Below are positions 581-25,603 of a DNA stretch of 41,950 bases, piece after piece. Positions within the stretch are counted from its first letter, which is position 1, and each line of letters opens with the position of its first letter. The translations under genes and the position numbers were made by a program. Location: the NCBI GenBank assembly GCA_964614835.1, contig CAZTNJ010000004.1:1-41950 (forward strand), written 5' to 3'. The notes beneath the pieces are model-generated. The model ran no database searches and was not told where the DNA came from. It saw only the letters and a list, made by a program, of their open reading frames with translations. The DNA is from an uncultured Ignavibacteria bacterium (GTDB lineage Bacteria > Zixibacteria > MSB-5A5 > UBA10806 > 4484-95).

Positions 581-1408
581 TTACTTTTCGAGTGTTCTTG
601 ATAGCCATTTAGTCAAAAGCGATATAATATAGGCGGCACAGCTGATAATGATAATGGTTGCGCCGGAGGTAATGTTGTAGATTTCGGAAAGTATTAGGCC
701 GGAGGTCGTAAATACAATACCGAGGATTACGGAATATATCATCATTTTTCTAAGGTTGTGGCTGAACTGGATGGTAATCGCCGCCGGGATAGTTAAAAGG
801 GCAATCACAAGGATGATGCCGACGACACGAATTAAAATCACGACTGTCAGGGCAATCATACATAATATAAGGATGTTGAGGAAGGCTACCGGTAGACCGG
901 AAACCTGGGCGTATTCTTCATCGAAAGTGAGGGCCTGTAATTCTTTAAATAGAAGGCCGACGGTTATGATTATAATGATATCAAGAACAACCATCAAGTA
1001 AAGGTCATAAGTTGGTACGGTGAGGATATTGCCAAACAGGTAGCTCATCAAGTTAGGCGCATAGCCGGGGGTTTTTTCGATGAGAACAATCCCGATAGCC
1101 ATCCCCATAGCCCACATGATACCGATGAGGGTATCTTCGAGTTGACGGGCTTTCTGGCGAATCAGGGCGATACCTCCGGCCCCGGCCAACGAAAATATCA
1201 CCGCCCCGATAATGGGATTGAACCCTAAAAAGTAGCCAAGTCCAATTCCGCCGTAAGCGGTATGAGATATTCCGCCGGCAATAAAGACAATCCGTTTGAC
1301 AACTACATAAGCGCCGATAATACCGCAGGCCACGCTGGCCAGAATACCGGCAATAAGGGCGTGGCGGAGAAAATCGTATTGCCAAAGGTCTCGGGCAATA
1401 TCAAGCAT
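581..1408 (-). CDS. metal ABC transporter permease (ABC-3 family, ZnuB/MntB/TroCD type)
   Basis: Multi-helix hydrophobic protein with the glycine-rich 'GGISHTAYGGIGLGYF' segment typical of ABC-3 permeases. I moved the start to ATG 1408 (MLDIARD...), which overlaps the upstream ATPase stop in ATGCTTGA. Confidence 0.85.
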   Translation of the reverse strand: MLDIARDLWQYDFLRHALIAGILASVACGIIGAYVVVKRIVFIAGGISHTAYGGIGLGYFLGFNPIIGAVIFSLAGAGGIALIRQKARQLEDTLIGIMWAMGMAIGIVLIEKTPGYAPNLMSYLFGNILTVPTYDLYLMVVLDIIIIITVGLLFKELQALTFDEEYAQVSGLPVAFLNILILCMIALTVVILIRVVGIILVIALLTIPAAITIQFSHNLRKMMIYSVILGIVFTTSGLILSEIYNITSGATIIIISCAAYIISLLTKWLSRTLEK

Positions 1409-2180
1409 GAATATCCCCTTCGTGGTCATGATCGGGTAAAACCCGATGCGGTGTGCCATGGGCGATTAAATCCACCGGGCAGCCGTATACGGATTCCATT
1501 ACAGAAGGAAGGATTTCCTTGGAACCATGATGGAATAGTTTGCGATTAAGGCAGGCCAGGTTTTTTACCTGGCGAGAGACAACACCTATATCATGAGAGA
1601 CAAGGATAATTGTCATATCTTTTGAAAGGTTAGCCAGCAATTCATAGAGGTTTTGTTCGGCCTGATAATCGACACTGGCAGTAGGCTCATCAAGAAGCAG
1701 AATTTTCGGTTGACCCGCGAGCGCTCGAGCCACCATCACCCGCTGGATTTGCCCGCCCGATAATTTACCGAGCTGACGCTTGCGTAAATCGGCAATCCCG
1801 ACAAAACCAAGCGATTCAATCGCTCTGGTTTTATCTTCCTTGGAATATCGCCGGAACATCGCGCTTTTATTGAGCCGACCCATTAAAACAACATCCATGA
1901 CATCGATAGGATAAAATCTTTCGAATTGGGCGACCTGCGGCACGTAACCGATTATCGGGCGAGCTTTCTGGGGTGAATCGCCGTGGATTGTCACTTTGCC
2001 GGATGTCGGTTGAATAAGACCGAGGATAGTTTTCAAGATTGTGGTTTTGCCGCCGCCATTGGGGCCGATTATACCTACATAGTCTCCTTGCTCAATCGTG
2101 AAATTGATGTTATCGAGCGCGACTATCGAATCGTATTTCACGGTAACACGATCGAATACGATTGCTTTGGTATCGGGCAT
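1401..2180 (-). CDS. metal ABC transporter ATP-binding protein (ZnuC-like)
   Basis: Walker A GPNGGGKTT, ABC signature LSGGQIQR and Walker B ILLLDEPT. Start set to ATG 2180 (MPDTKAIVF...), 10 nt downstream of the binding-protein stop. Confidence 0.9.
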   Translation of the reverse strand: MPDTKAIVFDRVTVKYDSIVALDNINFTIEQGDYVGIIGPNGGGKTTILKTILGLIQPTSGKVTIHGDSPQKARPIIGYVPQVAQFERFYPIDVMDVVLMGRLNKSAMFRRYSKEDKTRAIESLGFVGIADLRKRQLGKLSGGQIQRVMVARALAGQPKILLLDEPTASVDYQAEQNLYELLANLSKDMTIILVSHDIGVVSRQVKNLACLNRKLFHHGSKEILPSVMESVYGCPVDLIAHGTPHRVLPDHDHEGDIHA

Positions 2181-2190
2181 TTTGTTGGCC

Positions 2191-3081
2191 TTATTTAAAA
2201 GAGGTGGCGATTTTTCGAGCGATCTGACCCATATTATCAAGAAACTGCCCGTTTAAAGGATCGATATATTCAACTTTTCCGCCGATTTCGCGGGCTACGA
2301 CTTTGGCGCTTTCAGAATTAAACTGCGGCGAGGCGAATACGGTTCGGATAGTCTGGGCTTTGGCCAGGTTGACCAGATTTTTGATATCGGCGGCGGATGG
2401 TTCTTTGCCTTCGGCCTCAATAGACAACTCATTCAAATTATAATCGCGAGCAAAATATCCCCAGGCGGGATGAAGCACGATGAAAGTACGTTTGGGAGAG
2501 TCTTTAAGCATCGTCAAAATCGTTGCATCAAGTGAATCGAGCTTAGTTTTATATGAAGCGGCGTTTTTTAGGTATTCGGATTTATGCATTGAATCGATCG
2601 CGATTAGTCCTTCGGCGATGTTATCAATCATGATTCGGGCGTTGCGAACCGAATTCCAGATATGCGGGTCGCGCAGGCCATTGTTGTGACCACCATGGTT
2701 CTCTTTGGCTTTTTCGGTATCACGCATATTCAAAAGCTCGATTCCTTTCGAGCAATCGACTATTAACAAATGCGAATTAATTGAGGTCATTTTGCCCATC
2801 AGATTAATTTCGAAATCCAGGTCGGTGCCTATTTTAAAATAGGCTTTGGCGCGGCTAAGTTGCTTCATCTGGCCGGGGGTGGGTTCATAGATTTCGGGGC
2901 TGGAATTAGGCGGGACCATTTCGATGATATCGACATAATCGCCACCGACATTTCGCACGAATTCGACCTGTGGTAGAATTGAAACTGCTACGCTTATTTT
3001 ATCCTGGGAATACGAAGGCGCCACCAGAACAAACATCAGCGCTATGATAAATAAACAAGTTAGCTTGTTGGATTCTCGCAT
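2191..3081 (-). CDS. metal ABC transporter substrate-binding protein (ZnuA/cluster A-I type)
   Basis: N-terminal signal peptide (LFIIALMFVLVAPSYSQ), a conserved DPHIW motif and a short His-containing loop ENHGGHNNG. The start lies 3 nt after the upstream stop. Confidence 0.85.
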   Translation of the reverse strand: MRESNKLTCLFIIALMFVLVAPSYSQDKISVAVSILPQVEFVRNVGGDYVDIIEMVPPNSSPEIYEPTPGQMKQLSRAKAYFKIGTDLDFEINLMGKMTSINSHLLIVDCSKGIELLNMRDTEKAKENHGGHNNGLRDPHIWNSVRNARIMIDNIAEGLIAIDSMHKSEYLKNAASYKTKLDSLDATILTMLKDSPKRTFIVLHPAWGYFARDYNLNELSIEAEGKEPSAADIKNLVNLAKAQTIRTVFASPQFNSESAKVVAREIGGKVEYIDPLNGQFLDNMGQIARKIATSFK

Positions 3082-3084
3082 CTA

Positions 3085-4410
3085 TCAGGCTCCCACAGTC
3101 ATTTTTTTAACGTATAGCGATGGCGAACTCAGATTATCATAGTAAGCGATATCATCGCAAACGGCCAGCAATCCGCTCAAGATATCGTCGGCACTGCCGC
3201 CAACAGTAACATCAGCAACCGGCCGTATTTTCTTGCCATTTTCCACCAGGATACCGTTGATACCGGCGGAATATTGGCCGTTTACCGCTTGAAGACCCCA
3301 GCCGCTGGCCATTTCGACAATGATTCCTTTGCGACAGTTGGCTATGACATCATCAATTTTGCTTGTCCCGGGAGCGATATAGAAGTTGCTAACGGCGATT
3401 CCGGGGAGCGCCGCGTAATAATCGCGATGGGCCGAGCCGGTTGACGCGGTGCCGGCTTTGGCGGCAGTACGGCTATCATACAAAAATCCTTTTAAAACCC
3501 CGTTTTCGATAAGGGCTTGTTTGGATGGAACAACTCCTTCATCGTCGGCGGGGCAGCTTCCCGTACCCCAGGGCATAAGGGGATCATCGTATACGGTTAA
3601 CAAATCGGCGGCTACTTTCTTGCCGGTTTTGCCTTCAAGAAATGAAGAGCCGGTAAAAGCGTTATCCCCATTGAGGGCTTCGGCTAACCCTCGTAGGATA
3701 GAATAGGCGGCTCGGGGAGCGAAAATGATTTCATAGTCGCCGGAACCAACAGGGCGTCCGCCGATAAGGCGTAGGGCTCTTCCGGCGATTATATCGACTA
3801 TTTTATCTGGCGCGGGAAGGTTATCGAAACGACGCACCCAGAGTTGCCCTTCGCCGGGGAACATCTGGCCCCCTTTGACCGCAACCAGCGACAAACCGAT
3901 ACCATAGGATGTTAAATCGAAAGTAACATTGACGCCTTTGGTGTTGGCGATTGTTTTGGTGGTGACGAATTCATAATAGGTGATACCGTTAGATTTGGCG
4001 ATAACCGGGTCGTAATCAAACGCCAGTTTTTCCAAAGATAAGATATAGTCGATTTTGGAATCAATCGTATTTTGGGCATATTCGGGAGCATTTATCTGCA
4101 AATCAGATGGCACCTTTTGTTGTGATGGCAAGACCGCGTATTTATCTTCGCTGACTTTGGAACCGAGGTTACGTAACCCTGCGATTAATTTATCAATCGC
4201 CATATCGGAAAAATCGGTCGTGTGGGCGAAAGCCATTTTTCCGGATGAGAAATAGCGAATAGCCAAGCCGGACGGAGCGGCTTTATTTATGGAATCGACT
4301 TTGCTATCGCGCACAGTCACTTTCATGGTGGTTTCCGATTGCAGATAAACTTCGGCCATATCGGCGCCAGCTCGCAGGCATTTTTCCAATGTTTTATCTA
4401 TAAGTTCCAT
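3085..4410 (-). CDS. PmbA/TldE-family protein (non-catalytic partner of TldD)
   Basis: Full-length resemblance to the TldD/PmbA family. It has no HExxxH motif and no signal peptide. AGGAGG lies 4 nt upstream of the ATG, which sits 8 nt after the tldD-like stop. Confidence 0.8.
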   Translation of the reverse strand: MELIDKTLEKCLRAGADMAEVYLQSETTMKVTVRDSKVDSINKAAPSGLAIRYFSSGKMAFAHTTDFSDMAIDKLIAGLRNLGSKVSEDKYAVLPSQQKVPSDLQINAPEYAQNTIDSKIDYILSLEKLAFDYDPVIAKSNGITYYEFVTTKTIANTKGVNVTFDLTSYGIGLSLVAVKGGQMFPGEGQLWVRRFDNLPAPDKIVDIIAGRALRLIGGRPVGSGDYEIIFAPRAAYSILRGLAEALNGDNAFTGSSFLEGKTGKKVAADLLTVYDDPLMPWGTGSCPADDEGVVPSKQALIENGVLKGFLYDSRTAAKAGTASTGSAHRDYYAALPGIAVSNFYIAPGTSKIDDVIANCRKGIIVEMASGWGLQAVNGQYSAGINGILVENGKKIRPVADVTVGGSADDILSGLLAVCDDIAYYDNLSSPSLYVKKMTVGA

Positions 4411-4418
4411 AAAGCCTC

Positions 4419-5939
4419 CTATTCCGATCCGCCAACAGTTATGCCGCGATTAACCCGAACTGTGGGCACACCGGCGGTTACCGCCGCCCATTGGTCATCT
4501 TTGCCACACCAACCTACACCGACATCGAGGTCATCCGCAACAGCATCGATATTGGTAAGCACATCGATACCTCGGCCAATTAAAGTTGCTCCGGCTACCG
4601 GTGATGTGACTTTGCCGTTTTCAATAAGGTACGCTTCGCGCACCACGAAATTAAACTGGCCGGAGATAGTATCAACTTCACCGCCGGAAAGTCCCTTAAC
4701 ATAAAGCCCTTTGCGGGTGGAAGCAATAATATCATCGTGCTTGGATGTTCCATTATCGAGAAATGTGTTGGTCATCCGAGGAATCGGATAATAGTCGAAC
4801 GATTGACGGCGACCGTTGCCGGTGGGTTCCATTTTAAGCATCCGCGCCGAAATCAAATCGAGCATGAAGCCCTGCAAGATACCGTTTTCAATAAGCACAT
4901 TCCGTTTTCCGGGAGTGCCTTCGTCATCAAACTCGGTTGTTCCGCGGGCGTTTTTCCAGGTGGAATCATCGACCATAGTTACAAGGCTGGAAGCCACTTT
5001 CTTGCCTATTTTATCCGAATAAATGGAAGTGCCGCGATAGATAACATCCCCTTCCAGGCCGTGCCCTACAGCTTCATGGATTAGGACGCCGCCCCAACCG
5101 CAATTAACAACTACCGGCATCATGCCGGATGGGGATGGCTTGGCGTCGAGCATAATAACCGCTTCCTGGGCCGCTTCCAGGGCGGCATTATTGAGAACAT
5201 TATTGTCGAAAAATTCAAAACCTTGGCGGGCCGAAATTCGGGAGCGACCTTTATGGCGGATGCCTTCGCGTTCGGCAAGAACCTCGATAACCACCCAGAT
5301 AAGGGGCAACTCGTTTTCGATTCTAAGGCCGCTGGAATTGGCGATTGTCCTTTTTTTGGTTTCATCGTAATAGGTTATATCGACCTGACGAATATACGGG
5401 CTGAAACTTCGAGCGGCGGCCTCGGCCTCGGCGACAAGCTCCATCTTGCGTTTTTCGGGGATGCTGTCAATTGGGACTTTTACCGGACAATAAGCGGGGG
5501 ATTTGGAATTGACAGGCTCACCGAACTTAGGAGTATTGCCGCCGGAAGCTATATACGCGGCGGCCGCGGCGGCTTCGAGAGTTTTGGGGATATCTTTACC
5601 ATTTATATAGGCATAACCGTTGCGATCGCCATCGACGGTACGGACACCGATACCGGAGGAGATACCGACGGTAGCATCGGTAAAGGCATGTTCGCTCATG
5701 GTAAAAGCCAGCGAACTGACTTCTTCGGCGTAGATTTCGGCGAAGTTGCCGCCTCGGGCAAGAGCCTTATCGAGGATTGTCTTAATCTGGCGCTCATCCA
5801 TGACGGCCTGGACCGTGGGTGAACAACCCGAATCGGCCAATAGGCTAAGAATAGTCGGGGTTAAAAGGGCGGTCGCCGAAACGGACGCTGTTTTTTTAAG
5901 GAAGTCTCGGCGGCCTAATTTGCTGTCAAATATTTCCAT
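4419..5939 (-). CDS. TldD-family zinc metalloprotease with N-terminal twin-arginine (Tat) signal
   Basis: HExxxH motif in 'VLIHEAVGHGLEGD'. The N-terminus 'MEIFDSKLGRRDFLKKTASVSATALL' fits the S/T-R-R-x-F-L-K Tat consensus plus an h-region. Start set at ATG 5939 (AGAGG 6 nt upstream) rather than the ORF-track GTG at 5945. Confidence 0.85.
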   Translation of the reverse strand: MEIFDSKLGRRDFLKKTASVSATALLTPTILSLLADSGCSPTVQAVMDERQIKTILDKALARGGNFAEIYAEEVSSLAFTMSEHAFTDATVGISSGIGVRTVDGDRNGYAYINGKDIPKTLEAAAAAAYIASGGNTPKFGEPVNSKSPAYCPVKVPIDSIPEKRKMELVAEAEAAARSFSPYIRQVDITYYDETKKRTIANSSGLRIENELPLIWVVIEVLAEREGIRHKGRSRISARQGFEFFDNNVLNNAALEAAQEAVIMLDAKPSPSGMMPVVVNCGWGGVLIHEAVGHGLEGDVIYRGTSIYSDKIGKKVASSLVTMVDDSTWKNARGTTEFDDEGTPGKRNVLIENGILQGFMLDLISARMLKMEPTGNGRRQSFDYYPIPRMTNTFLDNGTSKHDDIIASTRKGLYVKGLSGGEVDTISGQFNFVVREAYLIENGKVTSPVAGATLIGRGIDVLTNIDAVADDLDVGVGWCGKDDQWAAVTAGVPTVRVNRGITVGGSE

Positions 5940-6120
5940 AAGCACCTCTTAGTTTTCCTTAGCATGGCGGAGGTAATCGGTTGGTCGGTGAGGTTATCAA
6001 CGAGTTGGAATAGGATGCCGCCGTTTTTTGTTGACATATTCATTAGATACCATGATATTTTATAAATAAGAGAATTCATTATCAAGCGGTTATTTTGCCA
6101 TGGAGGCTTTAATCGACTGA

Positions 6121-8400
6121 ATGTTTCCAAAACTCAAAAAGAATTTAGAAATATCCGAACAGGATTTGGCCGGAATCAGGGCCTATATTGTTAAAGACCC
6201 GTCAACCGGCAAATTTTTTAAGTTTCGCGATAAGGAATATTATATCGCGACGCTTTTCGATGGAGTAACCAGTTTCGAAGAGATAACCGCGAAATTTAAA
6301 GAGAAGTTCAATATTGAGCTTCCGGCGGAACAGGTCGAACAGTTTGCCAATCAGATGAAGGCAATGGGATTGCTGATTGGCTCCGGTGAATCGGAAATGC
6401 CCGTTCCGCTTAAACCGAAACGATCTATTTGGGGGAGGCTGTTATTTATCAAGGTTAAGGCGTTTGATCCGCACAGGTTAATAGAAAGTTCATATAAATA
6501 CGTTCGACCGTTCTATACCAGAACGGCGATTTATGTATACGCGGCGATGGCTATAATCGCGGCGATGCTTACTTTGACGAATATCGAAAGTTTGAAAACG
6601 CAGGCTGAAACGTTTTTCGTGGCGGAAATCATTCCCTTAATCTGGATAACGATTTTTATAGTGACGCTGATTCACGAGTTATCGCATACTTATGCTTGCC
6701 GGATAAACGGCGGCAAAGTTACGGATATGGGGTTTTTGTTGCTTTACTTTCAACCCTGTTTTTACAGCAATGTCTCGGATGCTTACATGTTTCCGGATAA
6801 ACGCAAGCGGATAGAGGTAACGATAGCGGGTATTATCAGCCAGATAGCGGTTTGGGCCCTGGCGACATTTGTCTGGCGGGTGACATCGCAGGACAATTGG
6901 ATAAACAGCATGGCGTTTATTATAATCGCCCTGTCGTTAATAGCGATAACTTTTAATTTCAATCCGCTTTTGAAACTTGATGGATACTATTTTTTAGTAG
7001 ATTATTGGGATATTCCGAATTTGCGGCAGAAGGCATTTTTATATATCCGGCAGAAAATCTTAGGGTTGACCGAAGCAGAGACGCCATTGGATGCAAATCC
7101 ACGCGAGAAAAAAATATATCGTTGTTACGGCACGGCGTCGCTTTTATATTCGGGATTGCTGTTGGGATACATCGTTTATAGGGTCGGGAAATTCATAAAT
7201 GATAAAATTGGCGGATTTGGTGTGGCGTTATTGGCGCTTATTATACTATATTTAAGCTATGATGCTTTGCAGAAAGGCAAGATATTCAAGGTTATTTATG
7301 ATCAAAGGGGCGAGATTATGAAACCCCGCCGGTTGATGATATACGGAGTGGTCGCGATTTTAATCCTGGTTGCCCTATTGGTGGTCCATTACCCAATGAG
7401 GGTCACTAATGAATGTATTTCTATCCCTTTAGAACGGATTTGCCTCGAAACCGAGGTCACTACCGGGTTGATTGAGTTGTATGTGGAACGGGGTAACGAA
7501 GAAAAATCGCTGAAAAAGTTCAAGCTGGCAAATCAGGAATACGCAATCATGTCAATTCTTCCGGCGTTGAAAGTCGGCGATAAGGTAAAGAAGGGCGATT
7601 TAATCGCCCATATCAACTCGAACGTAGTCGAAACGGATAGACTTGACCGATTGGCGAACGTACAACGGCAAAAAGAGCAATTGGCGATGCTCGAAAGGGG
7701 GCCGCGTAAGGAGGAAATCAAACAAACTCAAGATTTGATTAACCAGGAACGGGTTAAGTTGGAGAAGGCTACAATCGATTTGAATCGCGCGGAAAGTCTT
7801 CATACGATGGGCGGGATATCATCGGATGAATTGGAAAACAAAAGATCGTACGCGCAGGTTTTACAATCAGGGTTAGATTATTATACCAATCAGCTTAAGC
7901 TGCTCGAAAATGGATTTAGACCTGAATCGATCGATATGGCCAAAGCCCAATTGGAACAACTTGACGCGAAAGTAAAACATTCGGAAAGCCAGATAGGTGA
8001 AACCAGAATCGAATCGCCATTCGATGGCACGGTGACTATGGTTAATCAAAATAACATAATCATATCGGTAGCCCGCACAGACACGATACGGGCGCGAATT
8101 TATGTGCCTGAAAAAGAGATATCGGTGGTGAAAACCGGCAATCCGGTAAAGCTGAAAGTAAGGTCTTTTCCCTATCTGACATTCAGCGGAGTCGTAACCA
8201 AGATCGATCCTCTGGTTGTGGATGAAACGGATAAACATCGGGTAATAATGGTAACCGCCAATATCGCGAATCAAGATGAAATGCTTCTTCCCGGAATGAC
8301 CGGGAAGGCGAAAATTTATTGCGGAAGCTGGCCGATTTATAGGCTGATTATGTGGCGTCTGGTAAGGTATATCAGAGTTGAGTTCTGGTCGTGGTGGTAG
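6121..8400 (+). CDS. triple-domain fusion: PqqD-like (RRE) domain + M50/site-2-protease-like intramembrane metalloprotease + HlyD-family periplasmic adaptor
   Basis: Residues about 20-90, 'YYIATLFDGVTSFEEITAKFKEKFNIELPAEQVEQFANQMKAMGLL', are PqqD-like. The M50 motifs are HELSH within a TM helix and 'FNFNPLLKLDGYY' (NxxPxxxLDG). After two more TM helices there is a long coiled-coil ('QRQKEQLAMLERGPRKEEIKQTQDLINQERVKLEKA...') and a beta-barrel region ('IESPFDGTVTMV') typical of HlyD/MFP adaptors. Confidence 0.8.
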   Translation: MFPKLKKNLEISEQDLAGIRAYIVKDPSTGKFFKFRDKEYYIATLFDGVTSFEEITAKFKEKFNIELPAEQVEQFANQMKAMGLLIGSGESEMPVPLKPKRSIWGRLLFIKVKAFDPHRLIESSYKYVRPFYTRTAIYVYAAMAIIAAMLTLTNIESLKTQAETFFVAEIIPLIWITIFIVTLIHELSHTYACRINGGKVTDMGFLLLYFQPCFYSNVSDAYMFPDKRKRIEVTIAGIISQIAVWALATFVWRVTSQDNWINSMAFIIIALSLIAITFNFNPLLKLDGYYFLVDYWDIPNLRQKAFLYIRQKILGLTEAETPLDANPREKKIYRCYGTASLLYSGLLLGYIVYRVGKFINDKIGGFGVALLALIILYLSYDALQKGKIFKVIYDQRGEIMKPRRLMIYGVVAILILVALLVVHYPMRVTNECISIPLERICLETEVTTGLIELYVERGNEEKSLKKFKLANQEYAIMSILPALKVGDKVKKGDLIAHINSNVVETDRLDRLANVQRQKEQLAMLERGPRKEEIKQTQDLINQERVKLEKATIDLNRAESLHTMGGISSDELENKRSYAQVLQSGLDYYTNQLKLLENGFRPESIDMAKAQLEQLDAKVKHSESQIGETRIESPFDGTVTMVNQNNIIISVARTDTIRARIYVPEKEISVVKTGNPVKLKVRSFPYLTFSGVVTKIDPLVVDETDKHRVIMVTANIANQDEMLLPGMTGKAKIYCGSWPIYRLIMWRLVRYIRVEFWSWW

Positions 8401-8451: not shown

Positions 8452-9339
8452 ATGAAAATAATTTATAAACTTTGTCGCAAACAGGACTTGATTCCGGCTT
8501 TCAGGATGATAAAAGTTTCCCTTAATAACCTTCGTAAAACAACCGGCAAAGAAATCCTTCGCTACCGTTTAAGGAAGCTTTATGAAGTGGAACATATGTA
8601 CGCCACCGATAAAAAGACATTCTGGTGCGCCTGGGCAGGTAAGAACATAATCGGATTCGCGGCGGCGTTGCGGCGAGGAAAACAATGGTATCTGGGATTT
8701 TTGTTCACTCATCCCAAATATCAAGATAAAGGCGTAGGGCGGCAGTTATTAGAAAAGGTTTGGCGAGAAGCCCCCGGGATGACACATTCGCTGGCGACAT
8801 TCGCTTATAATATGCAGGCGGTCGGGATATACGGCAAGTTCGGGATGGCACCCCTGTGCACTCTTCCGATGATGGAATGCAAACTGGACAGGTTAGTATT
8901 GATGGAACCGACCGGTTTGAAAGCACGCGAAAAGCTCACCAATGCCGATTTTGCTTGGATAAATGAACTGGAAACGAGAATAAGGGGCTATAATCGTCCT
9001 CGGGAATGGAAATTCTGGCGGAATTTTGACGCCACCAAGATATTTGTTTTTGAACATAAAGGTAAAAGAGTCGGTTATAGTATGGTTTATAAAAGTGGCG
9101 GAATCGCGCCGGCGGGGGCAATTTCGAACGAATATTTGACTAAAGCGATAGCGGAAACTTTGAGAAAAGTAAAACCCGAAAAGAAATCGTTGAGAATTTG
9201 CTGCCCGACTCACAACATCAATCTATATCGATTCTTGCTGGCATCCGGATTCAGACTGACAGAGATGGACCTGTTTTTATCTGACCGGCCCTATCCCGAT
9301 TTCCAGCGGTACGTGCCCGCTCAATTGGCCATATTCTAA
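8452..9339 (+). CDS. GNAT-family N-acetyltransferase (two-domain)
   Basis: GNAT motif A-like 'LFTHPKYQDKGVGRQLLEKV' in the N-terminal half. The C-terminal half has no assignment. Confidence 0.6.
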   Translation: MKIIYKLCRKQDLIPAFRMIKVSLNNLRKTTGKEILRYRLRKLYEVEHMYATDKKTFWCAWAGKNIIGFAAALRRGKQWYLGFLFTHPKYQDKGVGRQLLEKVWREAPGMTHSLATFAYNMQAVGIYGKFGMAPLCTLPMMECKLDRLVLMEPTGLKAREKLTNADFAWINELETRIRGYNRPREWKFWRNFDATKIFVFEHKGKRVGYSMVYKSGGIAPAGAISNEYLTKAIAETLRKVKPEKKSLRICCPTHNINLYRFLLASGFRLTEMDLFLSDRPYPDFQRYVPAQLAIF

Positions 9340-9437: not shown

Positions 9438-10598
9438 ATGAAAAAGATTTCAATAATGACGGCCATCGGATGGTATCTGACAATAATGTCAGTCGCAACG
9501 GCTTTAGTGGCGCCCCGGGGAACCGAAAGCACCCTGGAGGTGGCAACCTGGAATTTAAAAGAGTTTCCCTACGCGGGGCAATCCACAATCGATACGGCCG
9601 CGATATTGATTCGAGATCTACAACTTGATATAATCGGGCTAAATGAGATAACCGACACTCTTGCGTTCGATAGTCTGTTGGCGCGGTTACCCGGATGGGA
9701 CGGCATATACGCGCCATCGTACGCGGGGGCATATATGAAAGAGGCAATCATATATCGAACCGATCAGATTCAGCTTTCGAATATCGAGACATTATTTTGG
9801 AATTTGACCTATGAATTTCCCAGGCCGCTATTAAAGGCCTATGTACAGGCGCATCTGCCATCAGGATACTTTGATTTCCATTTAATCGTGCTTCATCTAA
9901 AAGCCGGGAGCGAAGACTCGGATGTCAGTCGTCGAATAGCGGCGATGAACCGACTTAAGGATTATCTTGACCAATACGTACCGATAGCATCCGACCACGA
10001 TTGGGTGATAATCGGCGATTATAACGATAATGCCGATGACCCTCTGGCCAGCAATATATTTCGTAATTTCCTCGACGACACCACGCATTACAGGCTGTTG
10101 ACATTGCCGTTGGTGGGCAACCCGTACTGGGCATCATACCCGACATTTAATAGTTTGATAGATCATATCCTGGTAACAACGGATTGCCTGACCGAATACG
10201 GGGCTACGGGTCAGACTATTACACTTCGAATTGGCGATGAGTATCCCAGATACAGCAATATAATTTCGGACCATCGGCCGGTCATGTCGAAATTCGCGCA
10301 GATGCAATCGGGGGTTTTTGAGAACGCCGTTATTCCTTCGGATTTTCAAATTAGCGCTTACCCTAACCCATTTAATGAACAGGCAAATATATCGGTAAAA
10401 ATATCCAAACCGGGAATGATAAATCTGGAGCTTTTCGATTGTCTTGGCCGGAAGCAGCTGAATCTATATCGCGGCCATTTAGAAAACGGTAAATATATAT
10501 TTAATCTGAATGACAAGTCGCTTAGTTCGGGGATATATTTCCTGAGACTGTCGGGAGATGTACAGGTAGATATAATCAAAATGAATTTGATTAAGTGA
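9438..10598 (+). CDS. secreted endonuclease/exonuclease/phosphatase (EEP) family nuclease with T9SS C-terminal sorting domain
   Basis: EEP hallmarks 'LEVATWNLKEF', 'IIGLNEI', 'VIIGDYN' and 'SDHRPV'. The C-terminal ~80 aa, 'AYPNPFNEQANISV...SGIYFLRLSGD...KMNLIK', match the T9SS type-A CTD pattern. An N-terminal signal is present. Confidence 0.8.
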   Translation: MKKISIMTAIGWYLTIMSVATALVAPRGTESTLEVATWNLKEFPYAGQSTIDTAAILIRDLQLDIIGLNEITDTLAFDSLLARLPGWDGIYAPSYAGAYMKEAIIYRTDQIQLSNIETLFWNLTYEFPRPLLKAYVQAHLPSGYFDFHLIVLHLKAGSEDSDVSRRIAAMNRLKDYLDQYVPIASDHDWVIIGDYNDNADDPLASNIFRNFLDDTTHYRLLTLPLVGNPYWASYPTFNSLIDHILVTTDCLTEYGATGQTITLRIGDEYPRYSNIISDHRPVMSKFAQMQSGVFENAVIPSDFQISAYPNPFNEQANISVKISKPGMINLELFDCLGRKQLNLYRGHLENGKYIFNLNDKSLSSGIYFLRLSGDVQVDIIKMNLIK

Positions 10599-10615
10599 TT
10601 TAGAAAATACCACTA

Positions 10616-10658
10616 ATAAAAATCGCCTGATACGATTAGTTATCAGGCGATTTTTTTA
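10616..10658. terminator. bidirectional rho-independent terminator between convergent genes
   Basis: Perfect 12-bp stem AATCGCCTGATA / TATCAGGCGATT with an 8-nt loop. It is flanked by an A-run upstream and a T7 run downstream. Confidence 0.8.
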
Positions 10659-10673
10659 TATATCCAGACAAAA

Positions 10674-11954
10674 TTAATTCCCGATATCGGTGGAGAGTTT
10701 GTATCTGACAATGCGATTGTTGCCGGTATCGGAAATATAAACCGTTTTGCGATTGGCAAAATTATCGTAAGCCACGCCGGTGGGGTTGTTGACCTGTCCG
10801 ATGCTATCGCCTGAAGTCGCGAACGACATCCTGAGCTTGCCGGTCGAATCAAATTTGTGGATATACTTGACGACCGAATCGGTGGTTATGGAATCGAATT
10901 CGGGCACGGCATATGTAAATGTCGAATCGCCTTTCCACCAGGTGGAATCAAGCGTATTACGAGGACCGACAACAAATATACTTCCCGATGAATCGACGGT
11001 CGCCGCCGCCGGGTGGATAAAGTAATTATTGCGATGCAAATCGTTATCGGTACCGGTAAAAGCAGAAGCATACCATCCGAGACGATAATAGGTGTTGTTG
11101 CTGTATGCCAGTAATTGGCATTTGAAATACGATGAATCTTGAGTGTAGAGAAGATAACTGCGGCCACTTCTACCGAAGGCAGTAATGCCGTTGGGATGCG
11201 AGGTCGAACCCAGTCCGGTGCCGTAACTGATTTGGGGATTGGTGCAGGTGTCGTTTCCTACAAGATACTTGGAATCAAGAAGGTAATCGGATAGCGAATC
11301 GAACACGATCGAATCGGGGTTATCTATCGGGTGATTGAAGGCGGTATTCCCCGACCACCAGGTTGTATCGACGAAATTTATCTGATTTTTGAAAACCACT
11401 ACTTTTCCGCTATTAAACACGGATGGGGTAGCGGCGGTTACGTAATACCTTTTAACGTAGCCAACAGCGCAGGCGATATCGGTGAATACATCGGTGCTTT
11501 TGAGCATCAAAGTATCATTGTAGACATTATCGCGCCAGCTATAACAGAGGGCAGCAATGCCATCGCCACCGGGACCGACATTGATTTTATAAATATCTTT
11601 TGAATCGCCGGTAACCACGAGAAGGCGCAATAGCTCATCCTGGGTGAGGCCGATCGGGTGAGGTACTGCGTATGTTCCCTGAATCGTGCCGTGCGCATCC
11701 AAACGAACCACCCGATTATTATCGGTATCGGCGATATAGATATATGTATCGCGGCCCACGATAAGTTTGTGAGGATTGTTAAACGAAAAACCGTTAGCGG
11801 CGTCCCATGGCGGGTCAAGTTGGACATAAGTGGTTTCGCCGATAACGCCTCCCCCCCGATTTTCCTTGGGTCTGTTGATTTTGGTACCGCAAGAAAGTAA
11901 AAATACAATGGCCGCCATCACCGCAACAGTAATCAAAGCTATTTTCTTATTCAT
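10674..11954 (-). CDS. NHL-repeat beta-propeller lipoprotein
   Basis: Signal peptide with lipobox 'FLLSCG'. NHL-like repeats 'ADTDNNRVVRLD' and 'SDTGNNRIVRYKL'. The start lies 2 nt after the upstream stop. Confidence 0.65.
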   Translation of the reverse strand: MNKKIALITVAVMAAIVFLLSCGTKINRPKENRGGGVIGETTYVQLDPPWDAANGFSFNNPHKLIVGRDTYIYIADTDNNRVVRLDAHGTIQGTYAVPHPIGLTQDELLRLLVVTGDSKDIYKINVGPGGDGIAALCYSWRDNVYNDTLMLKSTDVFTDIACAVGYVKRYYVTAATPSVFNSGKVVVFKNQINFVDTTWWSGNTAFNHPIDNPDSIVFDSLSDYLLDSKYLVGNDTCTNPQISYGTGLGSTSHPNGITAFGRSGRSYLLYTQDSSYFKCQLLAYSNNTYYRLGWYASAFTGTDNDLHRNNYFIHPAAATVDSSGSIFVVGPRNTLDSTWWKGDSTFTYAVPEFDSITTDSVVKYIHKFDSTGKLRMSFATSGDSIGQVNNPTGVAYDNFANRKTVYISDTGNNRIVRYKLSTDIGN

Positions 11955-11956
11955 GC

Positions 11957-12961
11957 TTAGAACTCCAGACCAATTGAGAAGACACTGGTTCCACCCAGGT
12001 TTCTCATTGAAGTATAGCCGTAGTCAATCGAGCCTTTGGCCATTTTAATATCTATTTTCACGCCGGCGCCAAGCGAGTAGTTTTCAACATCCGAATTGAG
12101 CAGGTAGCCGCCGCGGAGAAATAACATCTCGTTCATCGAGTATTCCGCGCCGATAGCGATGTTCTCGGCGTTATCGGTCGGATGATTTAATTGGGTAACG
12201 CAGGTCAGTTTATTCTGGCCGGAGGTTAAAGGTTCAAAAGCCGCGGATACTTTAAAAACTGTCGGCGGCGAAAACGACTGATATTCTTTATCGATTATGC
12301 TTCCGGAAACAGTTGTGTATTTATAAGTGCCGCCCGGCTTTACCCGATTTCCGAAGTTGGCCATGTTTATCGCGAAACGAGTGCCATAGAAATCGGTTTG
12401 GTAGAGGGTGCCAAGGTCGACCAAAACCGTTTTCAGGCGAAGGTCCCCGATATTCTCTTGAGCGTACTTTAAGGTAAGGCCACAGGAAAAATATTCGGTC
12501 AGCTTGGTTGAATAAGACACGCCGGCGGCAAAATCGGCATATTCGATTGTTTCGCCGGTGCCTGTCGGATGATACTCGTCGGTTACCATCATGGGATCGG
12601 TCGTTAGAGTAATTAAACTCAAGCCCAGAATGTTGTTTTCATCGATATGGCGGGCGACGCCGATGAAATTGTGTTGAAGCTCGGCAACCCATGAACGATA
12701 GGAAAAGGCGGCGCCGTCCTGTTCATTCCAGGCTAATCCCGCGGGGTTATGATAGAGCGAGTAGATATCGGTGCAGGAGGCCGAATAAGCGCCCGCAAGG
12801 GAGGCGCTTCGCGCCCCAACGCCAATTTTCAGGAAGGTCATTCCGGCCGTACCGGATTTAGTGCCGCCCAGGCTGGGGAAGATATTGAACCCGAATGCCA
12901 TCGTCTGCATTATAAAAAGCGCGGCAACGATTAACGCTAGTATTTTTACTCTGTTTACCAT
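11957..12961 (-). CDS. PorV/PorQ-family outer-membrane beta-barrel protein
   Basis: Signal peptide, then 'FLKIGVGARSASLAGAYSASCTDIYSLYHNPAGLAW', the hallmark N-terminal motif of the PorV/PorQ family. Alternating beta-strand pattern with a C-terminal '...SVFSIGLEF'. The start overlaps the TonB-receptor stop (ATGGTAA). Confidence 0.6.
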   Translation of the reverse strand: MVNRVKILALIVAALFIMQTMAFGFNIFPSLGGTKSGTAGMTFLKIGVGARSASLAGAYSASCTDIYSLYHNPAGLAWNEQDGAAFSYRSWVAELQHNFIGVARHIDENNILGLSLITLTTDPMMVTDEYHPTGTGETIEYADFAAGVSYSTKLTEYFSCGLTLKYAQENIGDLRLKTVLVDLGTLYQTDFYGTRFAINMANFGNRVKPGGTYKYTTVSGSIIDKEYQSFSPPTVFKVSAAFEPLTSGQNKLTCVTQLNHPTDNAENIAIGAEYSMNEMLFLRGGYLLNSDVENYSLGAGVKIDIKMAKGSIDYGYTSMRNLGGTSVFSIGLEF

Positions 12962-15792
12962 GACAACGACACCCCCAACTTAATATTTCTTGGCGCCAGG
13001 TACCGCGATGGATCAAACGGGAATGGATAGGTCGGATTGCGATCAGGATTCAGTGGATCATTCCAGCTGGTCAAGACAGGATCGCCATACTCGTATGCTT
13101 GACCGGTAAGCGGATTAATAATTGAGGAATTTTTCGAATTGGTCAAATTGGTAACTTCCAAGAAAATTGAATATTGGAATTTGCTCAATCTGAAATGTTT
13201 TTTAACGCTCAGATCCATCCATTTCCATGATTTGGCGGTTCTGCTGTATGGGTTATTATCATTTTTTATGTATTCCGGTTCCTGTCCGAGTCGTTCTATC
13301 CTGGTGTATGTTGTGTAACGTTGACCCGATTGCCAGAAAAATCTCAGATAGGCGTTCCATAAGTCCGGCAGCCGAAGTTTCCAGATATTGTAATGTTCGC
13401 CTTTTCCAGAATAGAACGAGAAATCGGCGGAGACTCGAAAAGGTCTATCCCACGACAGATAATTTTCTTTAATCGATTTTTCCTCGAGTTCACCTCTGGC
13501 GACCAGTAGCTCATCCTTGGGCGAGGAGCTTTTACCGGTGGCAATCGAATATGATCCCTGCAACGTCATATTCAAAAGCTTGCTGGCGCGCTTTTTGTAT
13601 TCGATTTCGATACCGCGAGACCGAGCGTAATCGAGGTTAAAATACATGATGAAGTTCTGATTGGAATAGCGGCCGCCCTGGGTAATCGAAAACGCGGCGA
13701 TATAATCGAAGATATCCTTATAGTAGGTCGTAACGGATAGGACATCATTGGTGGTGACCTCGTAGCGTAAACCCAATTCGTAAGAAACGGTCGTTTCGGG
13801 ATTCAGGTTAGGATTGCCAAACAATGGATATGACGAGCTGGTGGAAGTTGAAGACAACTTGGCATAAACGCGCTGGGGTTGCGGCAATTTCGAGAAATGG
13901 CCGTAGGAATAGAAGAGCATGGCATTTTCGGTAACTGGATGGGAAATGCCGATTCGAGGGGAAATGTGGGCTTTGCCGCGATGGCCGAAAATGCTGTAAG
14001 TATCATCGTAATAGGCGGCCCGTAAACCGGGAGAAATTACCTCGGAGCTTTGATTTTTAACAAGGTCGTCGATATAGTCTCCCGGGAACCACCAATCGAG
14101 GCGGAGGCCGGCGTTGACGATAAGACCGAACGAGGATATTTTATCCTGAAGATACATCGACCCGGTATTGGGATAGACCTTATAGATATCGTGATCCAAA
14201 CCCAACCCGCCCTTGCCGATACCGGGGTTGTTGATATCCACCATCTGGATTTCCTGGAAGTTTGATTCAAAGCCGCCCTTAATTAAGTGGCGGGTTCCGA
14301 AGCTGAGGTTCCCATCCCATTTTAAGGTGTATTGCTCGAAATAGTAATCGCGCCATTGGTCGCCGACGCCATAATCATAGAAACCGTCGCCGGTAGTAAT
14401 ATCGTAATGGTCAAGATATCTAACCGGTTGATGGGATATTGAATCGAAGTAGGTTACATATACCGGTATATAATTTATGGGCAAGATATCGATCGGTTGT
14501 TCGTGGCTGTCACTCCAGCTTTTATTTTTAACAGATGATCGCTGCTGAGTGAAGAATCGCGAGAGTTTCAATTCGTAGAAAAATTTGGGGCTGGTGGTGT
14601 GGGTCAGCGAGAGCGTTTGGTTGTTGGAAACGCGAGTGCGAGTATTGTAATTGGCCAGAATGTTCTGGAATCGATATGGGTAGCTGCCCGCATCAAGGTT
14701 GGGATTTTCAAAATCATTTGATTGAAAACCCTGATCGATATTCAGCGAACCGGAGAAAGAACCGACTAATTTGAGGGTCGAGCTGAATCGATGAGTTAAT
14801 TTAAATAAACCGGAGTACTCGTTGGCCTCGCGGGGCGCGTATTTTGAACCGCCAAACAATGATGAGTACAGGTCGTGCGTATGGGGTAAATAGGTATCCG
14901 AAAGGCTGGCGTATCCGGAGGAGAAAAAGCTCATGTTTTTCACAAACGGTACCGGCCCCGAAAGCTGAACTTCGCCAATATCGGAGTTAAAATTAGAGGA
15001 GCTGATTTTTCCCTGGTCATCGACAGTGGATTTCTTGAATAGTCCGAAATTATCCGTTTTATAGGACAAGCGGCCTGAATACTTCTGCACTGAGCCTTCT
15101 TTGGTTTTAACCTGCACCACGCCCGACATGGCCTGGCCATATTCGGCATTGAAACCACCGGTTAGCACCTCGAATTCTTCGATGGCGCCGGCGGTGATAT
15201 TGAGGCCGGCAGTACCGCCGGAATAGGGATCCTGGATGGAGATACCATCGATAAGGTAGGCATTTTCGTAAGCGCGGCCGCCGCGAATATGGATTTCATC
15301 GCCGGCCACAACAACGCCCGATTGATTTTTCAGCAGATCAGTAGCGTTTTCGACAACGAGATTTTTAATCTGGTCGGAGCCAATTGCTGAGCGACTCTCT
15401 GTAGCGCCGATATCAAGCATCGGTTTTTCGCCAATGACCACGATATCTTTGCCAAGAGTCAAAACCGACGGTTCCAATTTGAAATCCATGTTGATAGAAT
15501 CCAGTTCTTCAAAATGAACCGCGGTTCTTTGAATCATCTTGTAACCTATCAGGGACACCTCTATCGTATAGGTGCCGCCTTTAATATTAACGACTTTATA
15601 ATAGCCGTCAATATTGGTTGAGGCGCCGAAATAGGTACCTTTAATCATGATAGTGGCGCCCGGTAAAGCTTCACCGGTTTTTGAATCGGTGATTACGCCT
15701 GTCATAACAGCGGCCATAGCGCTATTTGCCAACAGGGCGACTATCATCATCGTTAAGGTTATCAGGACAATTGAATTATTTCTGTTATTCAT
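12955..15792 (-). CDS. TonB-dependent receptor with N-terminal carboxypeptidase-regulatory-like domain
   Basis: CarboxypepD_reg-like 'GVITDSKTGEALPGATIMIKGT...DGYYKV'. Plug domain 'LLKNQSGVVV...IHIRGGRAYENAYLIDGISIQDP' and 'FNAEYGQAMSGVVQVKTKEG'. Long beta-barrel ending in 'LGVSLSW'. Start set at ATG 15792 (MNNRNNS..., signal peptide), overlapping the upstream stop in ATGAATAA. Confidence 0.88.
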   Translation of the reverse strand: MNNRNNSIVLITLTMMIVALLANSAMAAVMTGVITDSKTGEALPGATIMIKGTYFGASTNIDGYYKVVNIKGGTYTIEVSLIGYKMIQRTAVHFEELDSINMDFKLEPSVLTLGKDIVVIGEKPMLDIGATESRSAIGSDQIKNLVVENATDLLKNQSGVVVAGDEIHIRGGRAYENAYLIDGISIQDPYSGGTAGLNITAGAIEEFEVLTGGFNAEYGQAMSGVVQVKTKEGSVQKYSGRLSYKTDNFGLFKKSTVDDQGKISSSNFNSDIGEVQLSGPVPFVKNMSFFSSGYASLSDTYLPHTHDLYSSLFGGSKYAPREANEYSGLFKLTHRFSSTLKLVGSFSGSLNIDQGFQSNDFENPNLDAGSYPYRFQNILANYNTRTRVSNNQTLSLTHTTSPKFFYELKLSRFFTQQRSSVKNKSWSDSHEQPIDILPINYIPVYVTYFDSISHQPVRYLDHYDITTGDGFYDYGVGDQWRDYYFEQYTLKWDGNLSFGTRHLIKGGFESNFQEIQMVDINNPGIGKGGLGLDHDIYKVYPNTGSMYLQDKISSFGLIVNAGLRLDWWFPGDYIDDLVKNQSSEVISPGLRAAYYDDTYSIFGHRGKAHISPRIGISHPVTENAMLFYSYGHFSKLPQPQRVYAKLSSTSTSSSYPLFGNPNLNPETTVSYELGLRYEVTTNDVLSVTTYYKDIFDYIAAFSITQGGRYSNQNFIMYFNLDYARSRGIEIEYKKRASKLLNMTLQGSYSIATGKSSSPKDELLVARGELEEKSIKENYLSWDRPFRVSADFSFYSGKGEHYNIWKLRLPDLWNAYLRFFWQSGQRYTTYTRIERLGQEPEYIKNDNNPYSRTAKSWKWMDLSVKKHFRLSKFQYSIFLEVTNLTNSKNSSIINPLTGQAYEYGDPVLTSWNDPLNPDRNPTYPFPFDPSRYLAPRNIKLGVSLSW

Positions 15793-17215: not shown

Positions 17216-17244
17216 GATCCCCTCGAATCGCCCCCCTAAAACAT

Positions 17245-21360: not shown

Positions 21361-21483
21361 ACCCTTACCCTCCCGATCATTTTTATTGCGGCCATATAAA
21401 TAATCGAAATTAACATAATACGCAAGGATTTTCGCCGTTTATCGCTCTTTCTTACTCATTATCCATTAGTATTTTTAATAAAT

Positions 21484-21514
21484 GACGCCGGTCAGCCATC
21501 CGGCCAACCGGCGT
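21484..21514 (-). terminator. candidate terminator hairpin after the 1261-aa gene
   Basis: 8-bp GC-rich stem ACGCCGGT / ACCGGCGT with a 15-nt loop, followed on the minus strand by CATTTATTAAAAATA (imperfect U-tract). Confidence 0.45.
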
Positions 21515-21555
21515 ACACTCAAACGATAGACGTTATGTCTACCTAACAGTCAATT

Positions 21556-25341: not shown

Positions 25342-25603
25342 GATCTCCCTCAACTCGGTTGAGATGTTAAAAATTTCACGTTCATGGGTATGATGTTGTT
25401 TCGTATTATCACACTCCCTTCACGATTTCCCATTAAATTTCATTTACGAGTCTATTAGTAAGCTTTTGGGGACAAGAAGGACTTCAAGCCGAAAGTCAGA
25501 CTCATCATGGCAACCGTGTTACACTTATTATGCGCCCCTTTTCGGCAATTGTCCTGATTCCCGTTTAGTTTAACTTACAAGATTCGATTGCCGAGTCCCG
25601 GCT

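Follow-up and report, generated by a model that had tools for sequence, protein, structure and literature searches.

What is the task of a single polypeptide in which a peptide-recognition domain, an intramembrane protease and a periplasmic adaptor follow one another? This question is raised by a gene at positions 6121-8400 of the forward strand of contig CAZTNJ010000004.1 from an uncultured bacterium placed among the Zixibacteria, of which a stretch of 41,950 nucleotides (the window) was analysed. The gene product belongs to a large inner-membrane protein family that has no name so far, and we hold it to be rather probable that its members couple leader-guided peptide cleavage to export through the cell envelope. 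According to our proposal, a cytoplasmic RRE, the recognition element known from peptides that are made by ribosomes and modified after translation (RiPPs), would bind the leader of a small ribosomal peptide, which carries the motif ExLExRIAP in the family, and would hand the peptide on to the fused M50 zinc protease, whose active site faces the cytoplasm. The cut would be made just behind the conserved Ala-Pro, the EmrA/MacA-like adaptor, anchored by the last transmembrane (TM) helix of the protease, would connect the complex via its tip motif to an outer-membrane channel, and the short product would leave the cell. Peptide binding, the cleavage site, export, the partner channel in the outer membrane and a crossing of the inner membrane without a separate pump are steps that we infer. 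At the level of the family the mechanism is supported by small leader-type open reading frames (ORFs), to which the fusion gene is tightly coupled in relatives.

Architecture of the fusion protein

The ORF is intact and encodes 759 amino acids; it starts with ATG, has an in-frame TGA immediately 5' and ends in ...RVEFWSWW*. Its parts are as follows (all on the forward strand, with the basis of the assignment in brackets):

6121-8400 (+): fusion of RRE, M50/site-2 protease (S2P) and HlyD-like periplasmic adaptor (ORF, translation, homologues)
6133-6384 (+): N-terminal RRE, a PqqD-like winged helix, residues ~5-88, predicted to be cytoplasmic (AlphaFold2, Foldseek, Pfam)
6511-7020 (+): M50/S2P core, residues ~131-300, comprising TM1-TM4 and a beta-hairpin at 203-216 (NCBIfam, Pfam, AlphaFold2)
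6673-6687 (+): HELSH zinc-binding/catalytic motif, residues 185-189, with H185, E186 and H189 (translation)
6961-6984 (+): NPLLKLDG motif, residues 281-288, at the end of TM4, with the third zinc ligand D287 (translation)
7099-7383 (+): three additional TM helices, residues ~327-362, 365-385 and 402-421 (AlphaFold2 helices, hydropathy)
7387-8334 (+): periplasmic adaptor, residues 423-738, with lipoyl-like strands, an alpha-hairpin at 501-626 and a beta-barrel (Pfam, Foldseek, phmmer)
7786-7821 (+): RAESLHTMGGIS, the RxxxLxxxxxxS ('RLS') motif at the hairpin tip (translation)
8335-8397 (+): C-terminal amphipathic helix ending in RVEFWSWW (AlphaFold2 helix 739-758, translation)

The initial annotation had described these three parts within one 759-aa frame, and all of them were recovered by sequence profiles, by an AlphaFold2 model of the full protein (built on an alignment of 85 relatives; mean pLDDT, the confidence score of the program, 86.8) and, for the RRE and the adaptor, by Foldseek. 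Seven long membrane helices lie between the RRE and the adaptor in the model, and hydropathy combined with positive-inside loop charges likewise predicts seven TM segments, with the N-terminus inside and the C-terminus outside. The Lys/Arg-rich loops (189-230, 283-336 and 385-404) are found on the N-terminal side of the membrane, so that the RRE is predicted to be cytoplasmic and the adaptor periplasmic, which is the topology that the annotation had expected.

The PqqD-like segment quoted in the annotation, 'ATLFDGVTSFEEITAKFKEKF...VEQFANQMKAMGLL', corresponds to residues 43-85. In the model the domain forms a winged helix with strands 10-16, 19-26 and 31-36, followed by helices 37-44, 52-63 and 69-81. 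A separate model of residues 1-100 reached a pLDDT of 82, and values for the RRE ranged from 82 to 93. With residues 1-100 as the Foldseek query, the nine best PDB matches were all RREs, namely TbiB1, lasso B1 and CteB (probability 0.96-1.00); they include TbiB1 with its leader peptide (5v1v/5v1u) and a lasso B1 protein with leader (6jx3, TM-score 0.65/0.75), and CteB is a sactipeptide enzyme. Of the Pfam searches proposed for the three domains, those for the HlyD families gave scores above cut-off, whereas PqqD and Peptidase_M50 stayed below it for the query alone. PqqD (PF05402) scored 15.6 bits against a gathering threshold of 23.4 (E 0.021) and was matched by 3/15 diverse relatives at E<=0.01, with a best value of 8.8e-7. 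The positions of the RRE that are conserved throughout the family are retained in the window protein, for which a leader-binding role is predicted on the basis of the modelled fold.

Both signatures of the protease were located in the translation as first reported, HELSH inside predicted helix 168-195 and NPLLKLDG, the LDG part of which directly follows helix 260-279. This is the arrangement typical of M50/S2P enzymes, with HExxH in a TM helix and NxxPxxxxDG in a later one. The residues H185, E186, H189, N279, P282 and D287 are present in 85/85 aligned relatives and N281 in 84/85, an invariance that points to selection on catalysis. Peptidase_M50 (PF02163) scored 19.1 bits with the query (gathering threshold 27.2) and was matched by 15/15 relatives at E<=0.01 (best 1.5e-9). 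The strongest profile match was to daptide_HExxH (NF041824), an NCBIfam model that itself covers an RRE and an S2P: residues 21-385 align with positions 17-371 of its 379 (E 4.2e-59), at a score of 200.6 bits that lies under the 300-bit equivalog cut-off. The same model was matched by 15/15 relatives (best 2.7e-71). These 15 also matched the YydH/LiaK model NF058609, which aligns with residues 135-300 of the query (E 1.9e-13; 50.6 bits against a cut-off of 225). A sequence search of the PDB with the RRE-M50 half gave no match.

Behind the further TM helices follow the long alpha-hairpin, which measures 125 residues, and the beta-barrel named in the annotation, and the last TM helix (~402-421) stands where a normal adaptor protein has its N-terminal membrane anchor. 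HlyD_D23 was matched with 47.4 bits (cut-off 30) and HlyD_3 with 35.7 bits (cut-off 22.2). Foldseek retrieved EmrA (4tko, 2.9e-14) and MacA (3fpp/5nik/9qgy), with best E-values of 3e-14 to 7e-14; the whole model also matched the EmrAB-TolC and MacAB-TolC assemblies, and phmmer against PDB sequences recovered MacA and EmrA chains. The scores of the adaptor equivalog models of NCBIfam were all far under their cut-offs (e.g. 43.7 versus 208.65 bits for TIGR01843, type I HlyD). At the turn between helices 530-562 and 568-597 the modelled hairpin carries the RLS motif, in which R556 is conserved in 84/85 and L560 in 79/85 relatives, position 567 being Ser or Thr in 60/85. In MacA, AcrA and MexA the RLS motif is the experimentally defined contact with TolC, and HlyD has an RLT variant (PMC3391258). 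As judged from sequence, the tip thus fits a hand-over to an outer-membrane channel. The C-terminal helix that follows the beta-barrel has no counterpart named among the standard adaptor matches, and its tail RVEFWSWW is near-invariant (R752 in 81/85, E754 in 83/85, W756 and W758 each in 84/85 relatives).

The family is large. With one genome scanned per GTDB species, at least 511 species genomes contain a relative. A protein search gave 515 matches, the best 120 of which almost all measure 700-810 aa with full query coverage; more than 120 are full-length homologues with identities of 32-86%. The 80 best genome loci are end-to-end matches without exception and come from independent assemblies, including the closed chromosomes CP070839 and CP070777, and 17 contigs carry a record of the identical protein. 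Hosts are mostly Zixibacteria, which also provide the nearest protein relatives of the window protein in the form of metagenome-assembled genomes (MAGs); further MAGs are labelled Acidobacteria, Verrucomicrobia, Gemmatimonas, Limnocylindrales, Aminicenantes and Bacteroidota. When the RRE-M50 half was compared with clusters formed at 50% identity, 1,329 clusters matched at E<=1e-30, and since most of the best 150 have lengths of 700-950 aa, the triple fusion appears to be the dominant form among close relatives.

Databases list the triple fusion as 'putative peptide zinc metalloprotease protein', 'PqqD family peptide modification chaperone', 'HlyD family efflux transporter periplasmic adaptor subunit' or 'efflux RND transporter periplasmic adaptor subunit'. 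For the query and 15 relatives it reaches no curated NCBIfam cut-off, and our literature search found neither the fusion nor the leader motif described below in any paper, returning only daptide papers and unrelated matches; 'M50' in reviews on adaptors turned out to be residue numbers or fragments of DOIs rather than the protease. The novelty of the architecture therefore has to be divided: an RRE-S2P fusion is already known from daptides, but no paper or curated model was found for the triple fusion. A plain 'HlyD efflux adaptor' is unsuitable as a name for this family.

Leader-type small genes beside the fusion gene

A survey of gene neighbourhoods for conserved small ORFs, radical-SAM genes or ABC genes had been recommended, and it yielded the first of these three but neither of the other two as a shared neighbour. 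The clue was a tiny downstream ORF, ...YKLTVEVLEARIAPMGLSQGGQ, common to five loci. The leader pattern [LIVMF]E.[LIVM][ED]..[LIVMT][AS]P was then run over six-frame translations (2.57 million residues) of 87 sequences, i.e. 86 related loci including the window and one locus without a called target ORF. Out of 57 matches, 56 are at most 1.5 kb away from the fusion gene (45/86 loci), and a single one lies elsewhere. The distance of the 56 adjoining leader ORFs from the fusion gene is mostly 150-550 nt; 46 lie downstream of it, the other 10 upstream, and 49 share its strand. Their translation is suggested by a strong, normally spaced Shine-Dalgarno site, typically AAGGAGGTGA, ahead of the start codon in 55/56. 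At family level, this adjacency in the genomic sequence lends independent support to the original idea that the protein recognises a leader and cleaves it.

The encoded peptides comprise 19-74 aa; MADYKLTVEVLETRIAPAGISLGGQ is an example of a leader peptide to go with the protein of locus L005. Their conserved part (median 17 aa) shares the motif ExLExRIAP, or LE-x-(R/K)-(I/V)-AP, and ends with Ala-Pro, where the similarity stops. The tails behind AP are 6-8 residues long in Zixibacteria (xG(I/L/F/W/Y)S(L/Q)GGQ) and Gly/Asn/Gln-rich in MAGs of Acidobacteria, Verrucomicrobia and Bacteroidota, often with two GLLGYEGQPGNQGG repeats. Two such repeats are seen, for example, at L070 933-1139, L074 5684-5899, L039 1666-1860 and L080 9760-9915, and peptides of this type have about 100 close homologues of 54-70 aa among the top profile matches, nearly all of them unnamed. 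Two Aminicenantes-type loci contain three or four tandem leader genes that are identical or nearly so. These 31-aa genes (MAKKSTKKVVKLNVERLEKRIAPTRAAIAMG) are located just downstream of the fusion gene and on the opposite strand (L063 11717-12073 (-), 3-4 copies as in L081 7840-8321 (-)). A hydrophobic peptide candidate at the same two loci (cluster 37) was discarded, because it came from reading the strand opposite to the tandem MAKKSTKKVVKLNVERLEKRIAPTRAAIAMG genes, which are the real ORFs.

A profile of the leader peptides matched 2,174 database proteins, and those listed are hypothetical or unnamed except for one DUF1192 label, none having a Pfam domain. Against NCBIfam and Pfam the leader peptides gave no match, the sole hit (Amm_Lyn_leader, E 0.083) being insignificant. 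In the reverse direction, 3/3 peptide homologues that were looked up adjoin a 718-753-aa M50-HlyD gene. The peptide gene is the only neighbour common across phyla, and no modifying enzyme shares this distribution. When the flanking ORFs of the 86 loci were clustered, no ABC, MFS or RND pump, no outer-membrane factor (OMF) and no RiPP-modifying enzyme was common across lineages; an OEP gene or ABC exporter genes occur a few kb off in single loci only, and in other phyla unrelated housekeeping genes flank the fusion gene.

Some additional features are confined to individual clades. In L005 (12733-15519 (-)) and 31 other loci (e.g. L062 11574-14894), a gene for a Ser/Thr kinase-TPR protein of ~900-1100 aa is convergent to the peptide gene and is followed by a histidine-kinase/GAF gene, a linkage restricted to one large Zixibacteria clade. 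Other quorum-sensing systems use TPR domains for peptide binding, and by analogy the kinase could be a peptide receptor. In a clade with 37% identity to the window protein (L019 12388-13029 (+), L004, L018, L022, L025 and others), a thioredoxin-fold gene lies directly downstream; it has an in-frame TGA (…ATPT-TGA-PYCPRAV…) at the position of the first Cys of CPYC in L020 and L028, and probably encodes a selenocysteine (UxxC) redox protein. The same clade has a conserved stretch ~300-400 nt upstream of the fusion gene (L018 ~5420-5623, L019 ~9607-9711 and seven more loci), one frame of which gives YFFNYFATLALFNFNI. The stretch comes with neither a convincing ORF nor a Shine-Dalgarno site and could represent a regulatory or RNA element.

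The window's own clade and the rival explanations

Around the fusion gene, the window contains the following genes:

581-3081 (-): ZnuABC-type (ZnuA/ZnuC/ZnuB) metal importer, adjoining the PmbA/TldD pair; sole ABC system among the profiled window ORFs
3085-4410 (-): PmbA, divergent from the fusion gene and forming a metallopeptidase pair with TldD (Pfam, NCBIfam)
4419-5945 (-): TldD, divergent from the fusion gene (Pfam, NCBIfam)
8452-9339 (+): two-domain GNAT acetyltransferase, 51 nt downstream of the fusion gene (Pfam Acetyltransf_1/7/10/18)

The neighbours are thus those named in the annotation, and the GNAT gene is probably co-transcribed with the fusion gene. A twin-arginine signal (RRDFLK) is found at the start of TldD (SKLGRRDFLKK...), whereas PmbA lacks a signal peptide; the presence of a twin-arginine translocation (Tat) signal on TldD alone suggests that the pair is co-exported by Tat. 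The reported absence of an adjacent pump, TolC-like channel or modifying enzyme was borne out, no OEP/TolC, ABC exporter, radical-SAM or YcaO protein being present among the 28 larger window ORFs that were profiled. The full arrangement of TldD/PmbA, ZnuABC and GNAT is kept in L001 (86% identity), L002 (56%) and L007 (54%); L003 (48%) has the GNAT gene but not TldD/PmbA, and in loci at 43-44% nothing of it is kept.

Farther downstream, positions 9438-19251 hold a type IX secretion-related gene cluster:

9438-10598: endonuclease/exonuclease/phosphatase protein with Por_Secre_tail
10674-11954: NHL-repeat protein
11957-12961: PorV/PorQ-family protein
12955-16080: TonB-dependent-receptor-like protein with CarboxypepD_reg domains
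17245-19251: 668-aa protein with CHU_C tail

Three large ORFs of 687, 1265 and 476 aa (19264-25353 (-) and 15785-17215 (-)) have no Pfam match at E<=1e-4. The G+C content of the window is about 42-50%.

Several observations speak against leader-guided cleavage coupled to export, above all in the window itself. No leader-type ORF was detected anywhere in the 41.9 kb, neither by the strict pattern nor by looser ones nor by a hidden Markov model built from 47 leaders and run up to E 50 over every six-frame segment of 12 aa or more; three looser patterns for intergenic regions and an inspection of Shine-Dalgarno-preceded small ORFs within 900 nt were part of the same scan. A leader ORF is adjacent in 0/8 loci of the window's clade, compared with 29/31, 8/9 and 2/21 in other clades, and de novo clustering of the short flanking ORFs of this clade gave no credible peptide, the clusters being swamped by alternative frames of conserved neighbours. 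The RRE has the lowest mean identity of the three parts in the window's clade (RRE 0.38, M50 core 0.61, adaptor 0.53), the corresponding values for the large peptide-associated Zixibacteria clade being 0.42, 0.50 and 0.35; recognition could therefore be relaxed or retargeted in the window's lineage. An OMF or an energised pump is not linked to the fusion gene, neither in the window nor consistently in the relatives, and we know of no site-2 protease that acts as a peptide translocase. For these two reasons the 'self-contained module' for peptide export is treated here as a hypothesis. Finally, the parts behind AP are Gly/Gln-rich and hydrophilic and differ from classical transmembrane S2P substrates, so that the substrate would not be one of this class.

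The missing partner raises the question if the window's lineage has changed the job of the protein, having lost its peptide and now serving housekeeping processing or clearance of peptides together with the GNAT protein, the Tat-exported TldD/PmbA and the zinc importer. Such a change would explain the contrast between 0/8 loci and the 29/31 and 8/9 elsewhere as well as the relatively weaker conservation of the RRE, and it is in line with a GNAT gene that immediately follows the fusion gene in every locus of at least 48% identity and with TldD/PmbA and ZnuABC upstream down to 54%. Yet this synteny, which is gone at 43-48% identity, may be mere inheritance within one order-level lineage; the catalytic and RLS motifs are intact, the RRE folds confidently (pLDDT 82-93) with its family-wide positions kept, and peptide genes can sit elsewhere in a genome. 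We thus regard a change of job as unlikely, though deserving of serious weight, and favour an unlinked substrate gene, given the confident fold and retained positions of the RRE; the cognate peptide gene of the window protein is presumed to be encoded elsewhere in the genome. The S2P core and the solitary position of the window gene, with no substrate or pump genes beside it, would also suit a signalling protease of the RseP/SpoIVFB kind whose target would be a regulator anchored in the membrane, for instance an anti-sigma factor, with the HlyD-like domain as sensor or gate like the PDZ domains of RseP, and the kinase genes adjoining in 32 loci could be viewed in the same light. However, that kinase linkage is restricted to one lineage, the nearest profiles are those of RiPP leader peptidases and not of RseP-type enzymes, the RRE is a domain for binding peptide leaders, the relatives are paired with small soluble leader peptides instead of anti-sigma genes, and the adaptor has kept its TolC-docking motif, all of which makes a signalling protease distinctly unlikely.

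Taking the names of relatives in databases (HlyD or RND efflux adaptor subunits) and the match of the C-terminal half to EmrA and MacA at face value, one might see an ordinary efflux-pump adaptor, with the N-terminal half as a catalytically irrelevant membrane anchor. This is very unlikely in our opinion: the HExxH and NPxxxLDG residues are invariant across the 85 relatives (N281 in 84/85), a pump gene is adjacent neither in the window nor consistently across the 86 loci, and the equivalog models for adaptors remain far under their cut-offs. The chance that an assembly chimera or a frameshift has joined separate genes, on which the whole interpretation would have foundered, is negligible, since the full-length architecture with matching N- and C-termini recurs in more than 120 listed proteins and in 80 loci of independent assemblies, full-length relatives occur in at least 511 species genomes, and the identical protein is on 17 contigs. 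A bolder version of leader-guided cleavage and export would be a hexamer, driven by the adaptor and seated on a TolC-like channel, that forms a complete ATPase-free machine for peptide maturation and secretion. There, a ring of S2P domains would cleave the ExLExRIAP leader and itself provide the path through the inner membrane, and the adaptor funnel would deliver the product of 6-50 residues. This version appears rather doubtful to us; if it were true, the fusion and its peptides would constitute a widespread, previously unrecognised two-gene secretion or signalling system of diderm bacteria.

Should the module work in the manner favoured here, it would represent a simple and very widespread route for the release of short unmodified peptides, possibly signals or toxins, in poorly studied Zixibacteria, Acidobacteria, Verrucomicrobia and Gemmatimonadota. 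The ExLExRIAP leader and the RVEFWSWW tail would then provide a handle for genome mining, and it would have to be asked how a peptide crosses the inner membrane without an ATPase.

Comparison with known systems

The closest relative that has a name is the daptide protease. RRE-guided site-2 proteases are described, in the literature found, only from daptide clusters of Actinomycetota and Bacillota, whereas the fusion family occurs in MAGs of phyla generally regarded as diderm. The daptide protease resembles the fusion protein in the order and length of RRE and S2P, and all 15 relatives match its model, but the three extra TM helices and the ~310-aa periplasmic adaptor are absent from it. In daptides the RRE-dependent peptidase MpaP removes a leader with the motif ELExMEAP at its very end (E-8, L-7, D-6, P-5, M-4, E-3, P-1). 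ExLExRIAP and ELExMEAP have L(-7), E(-6), A(-2) and P(-1) in common and in the same register (L-E-x3-A-P core); taken together with the profile similarity of the enzymes, homologous recognition with cleavage after AP would be the most economical reading. The similarity does not extend to the rest of the daptide pathway. None of its tailoring genes (DUF-RRE, alcohol dehydrogenase-type decarboxylase, aminotransferase, methyltransferase) was seen near the fusion gene, and daptide precursors have a hydrophobic core and end in Thr, while the peptides of the fusion family end in GGQ or are Gly/Asn/Gln-rich. Export of daptides probably uses separate ABC transporters.

The maturation of peptides by M50 enzymes such as YydH and Eep is known as well. 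YydH/LiaK (yydFGHIJ of B. subtilis) is an M50-type HExxH membrane protease like the fusion protein, and YydH matures a small ribosomal peptide; no adaptor is fused to it, and the YydH/LiaK model aligns only downstream of the RRE. The partners of YydH are a radical-SAM epimerase and a separate ABC exporter, neither of which is encoded among the profiled window ORFs. Eep and other S2Ps of the RseP type in Firmicutes yield short unmodified signalling peptides, which are then exported via a separate ABC transporter. Eep has PDZ domains but neither RRE nor adaptor, and its substrates are TM segments resembling signal peptides.

On the side of export, the protein has the fold of EmrA, MacA and HlyD, including one TM helix directly ahead of the periplasmic part and the RLS motif. 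It differs from them in that its anchor is the last helix of a protease, that the RVEFWSWW helix is added at the C-terminus, and that its gene has no linked ABC, MFS or RND partner or OMF gene. Adaptor-assisted export of peptides is familiar from peptidase-containing ABC transporters with HlyD-type accessories, such as CvaAB-TolC for colicin V and ComAB, where removal of the leader is coupled to export. These systems employ a C39 cysteine peptidase and an ATP-driven pump, and the adaptor reaches the outer-membrane channel; the fusion protein would follow a similar logic with an RRE-guided M50 metalloprotease joined to the adaptor and no ATPase. What is new in comparison with all of them is an RRE-S2P unit for recognition and cleavage that is joined to a TolC-docking adaptor in phyla generally regarded as diderm, and a fusion gene that in most lineages is paired solely with a tiny peptide gene, the peptides forming an unannotated family of companions to the fusion family.

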